1,821 bases of DNA from Escherichia coli (GCF_003334315.1 NZ_QOWR01000112.1), one strand, 5' to 3'; positions 1-1,224 are shown, counted from the stretch's first letter. Notes: a model not told the origin generated them from the sequence alone. A program made the numbers and translations.

Positions 1-75
1 GGTCGTTAGCTCAGTTGGTAGAGCAGTTGACTTTTAATCAATTGGTCGCAGGTTCGAATCCTGCACGACCCACCA
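1..75 (+). tRNA. lysV: tRNA-Lys (anticodon UUU), missing its first nucleotide at the window edge; ends in encoded CCA at 73-75
   Basis: Sequence matches the E. coli tRNA-Lys(UUU) from nucleotide 2 onward as I recall it. Anticodon TTT is at 33-35 and the T-arm GCAGG-TTCGAAT-CCTGC at 48-64. The lysV assignment (rather than a lysT-operon copy) rests only on the convergent xapR-like gene downstream, i.e. synteny inference. Confidence 0.93.
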
Positions 76-118
76 ATGTAAAAAAGCGCCCTAAAGGCGC
101 TTTTTTGCTATCTGCGAT
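58..118 (+). repeat. Direct repeat copy 1 (61 bp): tRNA-Lys 3' end (T-loop to CCA) plus terminator hairpin and trailer
   Basis: 58-118 is identical over 61 bp to 214-274 (ATCCTGCACGACCCACCAATGTAAAAAAGCGCCCTAAAGGCGCTTTTTTGCTATCTGCGAT), compared by eye. Copy 1 is the genuine tRNA 3' end. Confidence 0.9.
80..106. terminator. Rho-independent terminator for the tRNA transcript; symmetric, so potentially bidirectional
   Basis: A-tract 80-85, stem GCGCC 86-90, loop CTAAA 91-95, stem GGCGC 96-100, T-tract 101-106. It starts 5 nt after the tRNA CCA. Confidence 0.8.
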
Positions 119-213
119 ACTCAAAGATTCGAACCTGCAGCAGGTTTGAGTTGAGCGCAGCGAAACAACGGAGCCGCTCGCGGCGACGGCCCGAAGGGCG
201 AGCGAAGCGAGTC

Positions 214-274
214 ATCCTGCACGACCCACCAATGTAAAAAAGCGCCCTAAAGGCGCTTTTTTGCTATCTGCGAT
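214..274 (+). repeat. Direct repeat copy 2 (61 bp): orphan tRNA-Lys 3'-end fragment (18 nt, ATCCTGCACGACCCACCA) plus second copy of the terminator hairpin
   Basis: Identical to 58-118. Only the last 18 nt of the tRNA are present, so this is not a functional tRNA gene. The repeat period is 156 bp. Confidence 0.9.
236..262. terminator. Second copy of the bidirectional rho-independent terminator; likely also terminates the convergent xapR transcript
   Basis: Same A-tract / GCGCC / CTAAA / GGCGC / T-tract hairpin as 80-106. It lies 78 bp beyond the xapR stop codon (340-342) on the minus strand and is flanked by A/T runs on both sides. Confidence 0.7.
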
Positions 275-339
275 TTGCGAAATTGCCTGATGCGCTTCAC
301 TTAGCAGACTACTATTTCCGGCAATTCCTGTCTCCTCAC

Positions 340-1224
340 CTACTGTGTCAATGCAGCCAACAGCTTAACCATCGCGGGCGTCACCTGCTGTGTTTCATAA
401 ACAATATATAAATCTGCAGGGATGCGCTGTTTGAGCGGACGGAAAATGACACCTGGCCAGTTCATTTGTGCGTAGCTGTCCGCTATCAATGTGATACCAA
501 TGCCCATACTGACCATAGCGAGTACCGTTTGCGGTTCATTAACTTCGCGAATAACAACCGGTGAAAATCCCACCTGCTGGCAAACTCGCTGCAAAAAATC
601 CCAGTCAGTGTAAACGGGCGGCATTGTAACAAAATACTCGTCACGTAGCGCTTCCAGCGGGACGGTGGAAAATGATGAGAGATGATGCTCTTCAGGCATC
701 GCCACCAGAAACGCCGATTCATGCAACCGTAAGCTGGTAAAACCAGTCGGTGGTTCTGTCGCCATTCGCCAGATCCCGGCATCAAGTTCGCGGCGTTCCA
801 GCAAGGCCATTTGCATCGCGGGCATCTTTTCGCGAAAAAGAACGTCAACGTTAGGATTTTCCCTGAGGAATCGCCGCATAACCGGGCGCATCCGTCCCCA
901 CATTGCCGTTCCCACTACGCCGAGTTCAATCCGCCCTGCTTCTCCCCGACCTATTTGTTCAATCCGAGCCAATACATTATTAGCATTCACCAGCAATCGA
1001 CGCGATTCTTCCATCAAGATTTTGCCCGCGTGTGTCAGTACGACGCTGCGCGAATGGCGAATAAAAAGCTGCGTGCCGAGTTGATTTTCCAGCTCTTTAA
1101 TATGAATGCTGAGCGGAGGCTGAGACATATTTAAACGCGCTGCTGCGCGGCCAAAATGCAACTCTTCCGCTACGGCAAGAAAATAACGGAGCAACTTAAG
1201 ATCTGTTCTGTATACGCGTTCCAT
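340..1224 (-). CDS. xapR: LysR-family transcriptional regulator (294 aa), most likely the xanthosine operon regulator XapR
   Basis: The ORF-track frame is 340-1239 (299 aa). The N-terminal region (LKLLRYFLAVAEELHFGRAAARLNMSQPPLSIHIKELENQLGTQLF) is a typical LysR-type winged-HTH and the remainder a LysR substrate-binding domain. I place the start at the second ATG (1222-1224, MERVYRTDL...) because GGAG (complement of 1234-1237) sits 9 nt upstream of it, while the first ATG at 1237-1239 has no Shine-Dalgarno. The xapR call rests on recalled sequence and on position next to lysV; it was not verified by search. Confidence 0.8.
   Translation of the reverse strand: MERVYRTDLKLLRYFLAVAEELHFGRAAARLNMSQPPLSIHIKELENQLGTQLFIRHSRSVVLTHAGKILMEESRRLLVNANNVLARIEQIGRGEAGRIELGVVGTAMWGRMRPVMRRFLRENPNVDVLFREKMPAMQMALLERRELDAGIWRMATEPPTGFTSLRLHESAFLVAMPEEHHLSSFSTVPLEALRDEYFVTMPPVYTDWDFLQRVCQQVGFSPVVIREVNEPQTVLAMVSMGIGITLIADSYAQMNWPGVIFRPLKQRIPADLYIVYETQQVTPAMVKLLAALTQ

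Follow-up and report, generated by a model that had tools for sequence, protein, structure and literature searches.

Between the last tRNA gene of the valU operon and the convergent gene xapR of Escherichia coli lies a symmetric hairpin, and the question that it raises is which of the two transcripts it serves. A preliminary description took it to be a single terminator plausibly shared by both, backed up by a first copy of the same hairpin that would also protect the tRNA from antisense read-in. To answer this, the structure of the hairpin, the transcript ends reported on both strands and the fate of the hairpin in other strains and genera have to be considered together.

The interval between lysV and xapR

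The stretch of DNA analysed, a window of 1,821 nucleotides, is the E. coli valU-valX-valY-lysV / xapR locus, and window position p corresponds to coordinate 2521253+p of NC_000913.3. Positions 1-420 occur as a 100% identical stretch in annotated genomes, and K-12 differs by one base. An identical genome carries a tRNA-Lys annotation at 1-75; the gene is named lysV in K-12. ARAGORN called no tRNA in the window because the window edge removes the first base of lysV, which is recovered by Rfam. The features that bear on the question are the following.

1 to 75, plus strand: lysV, tRNA-Lys(UUU), its first base missing at the window edge (Rfam tRNA, 71.1 bits, 5'-cut)
58 to 118, plus strand: repeat copy 1, 61 nt (direct-repeat search, 100% identity, spacing 156)
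80 to 106, either strand: hairpin 1 (fold; primary transcript of ~438 nt, PMC4176162)
106 to 231, plus strand: RtT-Lys element, a tRNA-linked repeat or TLR (Rfam RF00391; PGAP 'RtT sRNA')
214 to 274, plus strand: repeat copy 2, 61 nt (direct-repeat search, same family as 58-118)
236 to 262, either strand: hairpin 2, distal copy of the tRNA-Lys operon terminator (fold; plus-strand 3' terminus; scan in the xapR sense)
263 to 339, minus strand: 3' untranslated spacer of xapR, 77 nt (coordinates)
284 to 312, minus strand: decayed REP (repetitive extragenic palindrome) copy in the xapR spacer (local alignment)
340 to 1224, minus strand: xapR, LysR-type activator of xapAB, 294 aa (ORF 340-1239; NCBIfam NF007439, 531 bits; annotation)

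The stop codon of xapR, at 340-342 on the minus strand, is followed by the 77-nt spacer and then by hairpin 2, just as the preliminary description had placed them. The decayed REP copy aligns with an intact Citrobacter REP found in the same position, 25 of 30 aligned columns being identical, with one gap. Positions 275-278 form the left border of the xapABR cassette. At the other side of xapR, an IS1 end with the inverted repeat GGTAATGACTCC... starts at 1369, which is 145 nt upstream of the xapR start, and the element runs within 1369-1821, where its insB-type ORF occupies 1384-1761 on the minus strand. A 53-aa DUF1427 gene, which other genomes keep intact at 1265-1423, has lost its first 19 codons to the insertion. 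No contiguous match to the whole window exists among 5426 complete genomes, and the best matches carry IS1 at other places.

Hairpin 2 consists of AAAAAAGCGCC-CTAAA-GGCGCTTTTTT, its 11-nt arms being 100% complementary around a 5-nt loop, and its layout, A6-GCGCC-CTAAA-GGCGC-T6, is a perfect palindrome. The two elements of an intrinsic terminator are present: a stem-loop, in which a 5-bp GC core is lengthened to 11-12 pairs, and a U6 tract that follows the G+C stem in both orientations. The hairpin thus offers a U-tract on both strands at a site between two convergent transcription units. The bidirectional character first proposed for it is borne out by the U6 on each side and by stable folds on both strands; in a 41-nt context, the plus-strand RNA folds with -19.1 kcal/mol (z = -5.85) and the minus-strand RNA with -15.6 kcal/mol (z = -4.37), and none of 200 dinucleotide shuffles was as stable on either strand. 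Hairpin 1 at 80-106 is an exact copy, again as originally noticed. A standard terminator scan, which extends stems maximally, overlooked both copies because maximal A-T pairing swallows the T-run into the stem, and a scan that permits sub-maximal stems recovers hairpin 2 in the xapR sense. Structurally, hairpin 2 qualifies as a genuine intrinsic terminator that can act in both orientations.

Transcript ends on the two strands

For the tRNA strand, the study by Agrawal, Mohanty and Kushner (2014; PMC4176162) describes a Rho-independent terminator of the valU and lysT operons with the same sequence as the hairpin considered here. Northern analysis and RNA circularisation gave a primary transcript of the valU operon of ~438 nt, this being the authors' predicted size fitted to the northern band, without a 3' end at nucleotide resolution. 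In the same article, transcription starts 9 nt upstream of valU, a terminator probe hybridises to the full-length valU species alone, RNase P cuts the terminator off 2-3 nt past the lysV CCA, and the lysV and lysQ terminators are identical. From the start at 2520922 to the end of the hairpin 1 T-run at 2521359 (window 106), the distance is 438 nt exactly; a transcript ending at hairpin 2 would measure 594 nt. The ~438-nt length therefore marks 80-106 as the main terminator of the tRNA operon. For this operon, hairpin 2 is the second barrier and not the first, so that the roles of terminator and backup have to be exchanged with respect to the preliminary description.

Downstream of hairpin 1, a TRS re-analysis of RNAtag-seq data (PMC10687069) places a plus-strand terminus at 2521513-2521523 (window 260-270, hairpin 2), with a signal of 0.94-0.95 in two datasets, and another at 2521470-2521479 (window 217-226, within RtT), with a signal of about 0.47-0.49. 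Both termini are also called in the module beside lysQ (781797 and 781844, the RtT-internal one being mirrored at 781794-781804). Since the modules are identical over window 1-267, reads at hairpin 2 and RtT are unassignable between lysV and lysQ, and short-read 3'-end maps in general are unable to assign ends within exact repeats that are common to both loci. The standard 3'-end pipelines drop termini beside tRNA genes and are therefore silent on hairpin 1. The two termini mean that RtT is transcribed. A possible release of RtT as a discrete RNA from the tRNA primary transcript would involve the termini called at 217-226 and at the following hairpin, from reads that map to two loci. A sequence scan found no promoter-like site in 76-340; an independent RtT promoter was rejected on this ground, and read-through of hairpin 1 is the simplest source of RtT. 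The terminus at 217-226 lies 5-14 nt before the pseudo-CCA end of RtT and could be a processing or pausing site.

Transcription that passes both hairpins was captured by Adams et al. (2021; PMC7815308). On the plus strand at K-12 2521597 (window 344), 4531 reads fall in the 800 nt upstream versus 24 downstream, and bicyclomycin lifts the downstream coverage about 3-fold, from 24 to 67 reads, with a Rho score of 2.97. A Rho-dependent termination region antisense to the xapR 3' end is reported at this position. Read-through into antisense xapR is therefore tiny and Rho-sensitive, and the rise with bicyclomycin suggests that Rho clears the small tRNA-operon read-through that escapes both hairpins.

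On the xapR strand, the curated Term-seq table of Adams et al. (PMC7815308) has no lysV or xapR entry, and no minus-strand xapR 3' end is listed in the 3'-end tables of PMC7815308 and PMC10687069. Weak expression of xapR would account for the lack of a listed end. Two terminator scans found no other hairpin with a U-tract in the spacer at 263-339. Apart from the hairpin at 236-262 and, behind it, the identical hairpin 1, nothing terminator-like was found on the way from the xapR stop to the tRNA. As the first and only canonical stem-plus-U6 past the xapR stop, it is the most likely xapR terminator.

An intrinsic terminator of xapR had already been supposed by Steinrueck and Guet (PMC5526668), who described a primer as "upstream of xapR terminator". 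We place this primer at window 330-311, in the xapR sense, its partner being in the gltX-valU intergenic region. RT-PCR from the xapR 3' UTR to beyond valU gave no product, whether Rho was wild type or the mutant M416I, and the authors regarded the xapR transcript as not Rho-terminated by computational terminator classification. The negative RT-PCR fits termination at the hairpins; it leaves the stop site of xapR unplaced, and low xapR abundance could equally explain it. Termination of xapR at 236-262 is likely, given the lone downstream terminator-like structure, the spacing of 20-21 nt in E. albertii (see below) and the negative RT-PCR.

Thus, of the proposal that one hairpin serves both transcripts, the bidirectional structure between convergent units stands, but the tRNA operon ends mainly at the other copy, 80-106, and no listed xapR end falls on the hairpin. 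Shared use of one hairpin in both directions could hold in strains that carry a single copy.

The 156-bp unit and its distribution

Each hairpin is part of a 61-nt direct repeat (58-118 and 214-274; period 156, 100% identity). The repeat opens with the 18 nt that close tRNA-Lys and continues with ATGT, the hairpin and GCTATCTGCGAT. The whole tandem unit of 156 bp carries, after these 18 nt, ATGT, the hairpin and 12 nt, a 95-nt core of the RtT or tRNA-linked-repeat type. The preliminary description had noticed neither the repeat, nor its start within the tRNA, nor the RtT element between the hairpins. The segment between the hairpins is labelled 'RtT sRNA' by PGAP, the NCBI pipeline, and scores 46.7 bits with RF00391 at 106-231, a slim margin over the gathering score of 45, the model's outer helix being unformed here; copies at tyrT score 133-137 bits. 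The pseudo tRNA-Lys 3' end ATCCTGCACGACCCACCA at 214-231 equals 58-75 and agrees with the definition of tRNA-linked repeats in PMC8144298. According to that review, such repeats number 22 copies at ten K-12 loci, each ending with 18-19 nt of the upstream tRNA or rRNA, and are without known function except for the rrn-linked rrA/B/F sRNAs. RtT-Lys is conserved across genera, with some compensatory pairs. Its inner helix shows modest covariation under a hand-written structure; RNAalifold overlooked it because one alignment mixed two RtT subtypes.

Pieces of the cognate tRNA recur inside the element. In RtT-Lys, 126-138 is an exact inverted copy of the lysV T-arm (48-60, GCAGGTTCGAATC), and 140-149 is a near-direct copy of it. 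RtT-Tyr of the K-12 tyrT locus (L010, 1267-1398) likewise holds direct and inverted tRNA-Tyr pieces beyond the common 3' end. From these, tRNA-linked repeats look like chimeras of tRNA fragments and a common core. RtT-Lys units of 206-230 nt in several genomes (L055, L105, L109, L118 and L119) are split by a ~70-nt insertion starting GACAAAATTGTCGGGAACAATTTTG. The insertion has its own hairpin of the CCCGAAGGG type and may therefore be a nested repeat or a miniature mobile element.

The number of units differs between E. coli strains. Alleles L003 and L007 have one hairpin and no RtT; the window, K-12 and alleles L001 and L006 have two hairpins and one RtT; allele L004 has three hairpins and two RtT. 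The hairpins of the 1-, 2- and 3-copy genomes are in exact 156-nt register, with a constant spacing from the last hairpin to xapR, so the single hairpin of strain L003 lies 4 nt past the tRNA and 77 nt past xapR. These counts speak against a main-plus-backup pair by design, the copies being the ends of a 156-bp RtT unit. The hairpin sequence is invariant across the retrieved E. coli alleles, including lineages at 93-94% identity, and the RtT-Lys core is present in 3243 of the 5426 complete genomes.

The module is also found where xapR is not. Strain S21 lacks the xapABR cassette entirely and keeps both hairpins and RtT; it follows the window as far as position 277, a point 3 nt beyond the 61-nt repeat, and differs from there on. 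Such an xap-less junction, with a FlxA-like gene next, occurs in 1315 of the 5426 complete genomes, and the K-12-type xapR junction in 2498. Repeated horizontal transfer of xapR and xapA is a textbook example (PMC2395238). Elsewhere in the chromosome, the lysT-lysQ operon ends with the same module, base for base identical to window 1-267, and the next gene after it, nadA, is co-directional. Each tRNA-Lys gene of the lysT operon is followed by an RtT-like element. In K-12, the lysV and lysQ modules differ over 267 nt solely at window 107 (G in the window and in the K-12 lysQ copy, A in K-12 lysV), which hints at gene conversion between the loci. The occurrence of the module beside a co-directional nadA and its retention in genomes without xapABR show that the symmetry is a trait of the terminator family and not an adaptation to xapR. 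The symmetric hairpin belongs to the ends of tRNA-Lys operons, not to the convergent neighbour.

A wider view was obtained by scanning species-representative genomes for a tRNA-Lys 3' end followed by an A-run and a T-run. At least 120 stretches matched. They come from numerous genera of Enterobacterales and from a few taxa besides, and tandem copies spaced by 155-200 nt are frequent; the scan pattern itself demands the runs, and their prevalence is therefore no unbiased estimate. Among the matches listed, the stem varies in a compensatory manner (GCGCC/GGCGC, GGCGCC/GGCGCC, GCACC/GGTGC, GCTCC/GGAGC, GGAGAGC/GCTCTCC). When 26 distinct units are aligned, pairing in the terminator helix reaches 98%; A-U is replaced by G-C in 10 sequences and G-C by A-U in 3. 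Hairpin copies at the same loci that the pattern had not selected (n = 23; copies not phylogenetically independent) include 10 that lost the A-run and kept the T-run and 1 with the reverse. As judged from sequence, this suggests that the tRNA-sense U-tract is the more constrained side of the hairpin. Crude ORF calls among the matches listed put a convergent gene next in about 58 loci and a co-directional one in about 40.

Orthologues of xapR (68-83% identity) face the hairpin in Citrobacter, E. albertii, cryptic Escherichia, Enterobacter sp. MGH24 and Entomohabitans. Only 20-21 nt separate the xapR stop from the hairpin in E. albertii and the cryptic Escherichia lineage, as against 77 nt in E. 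coli; three of four Citrobacter loci have a gap of 107-226 nt, taken up by one to four REP elements. No REP is seen at the xapR 3' position in E. albertii or the cryptic Escherichia lineage. The hairpin copy nearest to xapR has, in several genera, a U-tract that is interrupted when read in the xapR sense.

Competing explanations and their meaning

The explanation that we favour, with a probability of about three in four for the whole, is that both tRNA-Lys-terminated operons of E. coli end in the same Rho-independent terminator, of which 236-262 is the second copy, duplicated along with an RtT-Lys unit. A polymerase coming from the valU operon meets hairpin 1 (80-106) first, and most transcripts end there, as the 438-nt species shows; RNase P then trims the terminator off 2-3 nt past the lysV CCA. 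A minority of polymerases would pass hairpin 1, transcribe RtT and stop at hairpin 2. Those going on into antisense xapR make up the small fraction, shown to be less than about 0.5% of upstream coverage, that increases ~3-fold when Rho is inhibited. Transcripts of xapR would stop at hairpin 2, with hairpin 1 behind it. The capacity to act in both directions would be a by-product of the A6/T6 symmetry of the family, which xapR can exploit and which presumably did not evolve for xapR.

The main competitor concerns the xapR strand. There, the transcript may end independently of the hairpin, by Rho or by decay or processing in the 77-nt spacer with its REP remnant, so that the hairpin would matter for the tRNA strand only. 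Such an ending would agree with the lack of xapR 3' ends called at the hairpin in the tables of PMC7815308 and PMC10687069, with the REP-like remnant held by the spacer and with the U-tract that is broken in the xapR sense in several genera. However, the E. coli REP is decayed and the spacer fold is no more stable than shuffles (z = -1.5), while the 20-21 nt in E. albertii and the cryptic clade provide scant room for a Rho loading site. In addition, the Rho mutant M416I gave no read-through product, and the computational classification of Steinrueck and Guet (both PMC5526668) did not count xapR among Rho-terminated transcripts. We consider hairpin-independent termination possible but unlikely. 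That the hairpin at 236-262 alone serves the tRNA operon and xapR, with 80-106 as a backup shielding the tRNA from antisense transcription, has geometry and symmetry in its favour, as well as the single hairpin of the one-copy strain L003, 4 nt past the tRNA and 77 nt past xapR, and the plus-strand 3' terminus called at hairpin 2. It appears improbable when set against the ~438-nt primary transcript, which corresponds to hairpin 1 and not to the 594 nt that hairpin 2 would need, against a copy number that is polymorphic from 1 to 3 and derives from a repeat unit, and against the same hairpin pair at lysQ without a convergent gene.

Converging tRNA-operon and xapR polymerases might end each other by collision, as in the SEnd-seq model, the hairpin acting mainly as a pause site. 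According to bioRxiv 10.1101/2022.10.23.513370, endings of this class are common where E. coli genes converge, but in the same report they are unlike intrinsic terminators, and the hairpin here is a textbook example that carries U6 on either side. Moreover, most polymerases moving in the tRNA sense already stop 156 nt before, at hairpin 1, and the same hairpin works at lysQ in the absence of a convergent partner, which makes collision very improbable. Alternatively, the 61-nt repeats could be attL/attR-type scars left by an integrase at the tRNA 3' end, the hairpin being duplicated solely by this event. Integrative elements that target tRNA genes characteristically leave a duplicated tRNA 3' end around the DNA they insert, and the boundary of the xapABR cassette is 3 nt past the repeat. 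Yet the interior, at just 95 nt, has no integrase gene. It is a conserved RtT core, which recurs in tandem arrays and behind each tRNA-Lys gene of the lysT operon, and the units are conserved across genera. The scar was rejected on account of the 95-nt interior, the tandem arrays and the presence of the unit at two loci, and we attach almost no weight to it.

A more speculative extension, which we judge quite improbable when its parts are taken jointly, is that the 156-bp unit as a whole, from the tRNA 3' end through the symmetric terminator to the RtT core, is functional and propagates itself as a module. The leakiness of hairpin 1 would then set the dose of an RtT-Lys small RNA, hairpin 2 would define its 3' end and insulate it from the convergent neighbour, and the tRNA-derived pieces of RtT, the exact inverted T-arm copy among them, would reflect templated copying that spreads units behind tRNA genes.

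Several known systems resemble parts of this arrangement. The accessible part of PMC4176162 deals with the tRNA-proximal terminator copy only and makes no mention of the second copy, RtT or xapR (zero occurrences of 'xapR'), so that hairpin 2 is a distal copy of what is described there. The tRNA-linked repeats and RtT RNA (Egan and Landy, 1978; Rudd, 1999; RF00391; reviewed in PMC8144298) are like RtT-Lys in being found downstream of a tRNA and in carrying an 18-nt tRNA 3' end; RtT-Lys units differ from them in that each also holds a complete terminator hairpin. In rrnA, rrnB and rrnD, dual terminators T1 and T2 flank the TLR-type sRNAs rrA/B/F, T1 being leaky (87%) and T2 tight (PMC8144298). 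The order terminator-TLR-terminator parallels that of the window. However, T1 and T2 differ in sequence, whereas the hairpins of the window are exact copies produced by tandem duplication, the second abutting a convergent gene. Bidirectional intrinsic terminators between convergent genes show the same symmetric arrangement of A-run, stem and T-run; unlike that class, the symmetric hairpin studied here also occurs beside co-directional neighbours, and its dual use is a candidate one.

No literature naming xapR together with lysV was found. Earlier publications already contain the terminator, its identity at lysQ and its removal by RNase P, as well as the tRNA-linked repeat and the notion of an intrinsic "xapR terminator", and nothing here is new in kind. 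The significance beyond housekeeping is small. It lies in a terminator whose copy number varies from 1 to 3 between E. coli strains, and in a symmetric design that travels with tRNA-Lys and not with xapR, which advises caution in inferring purpose from symmetric hairpins between convergent genes.
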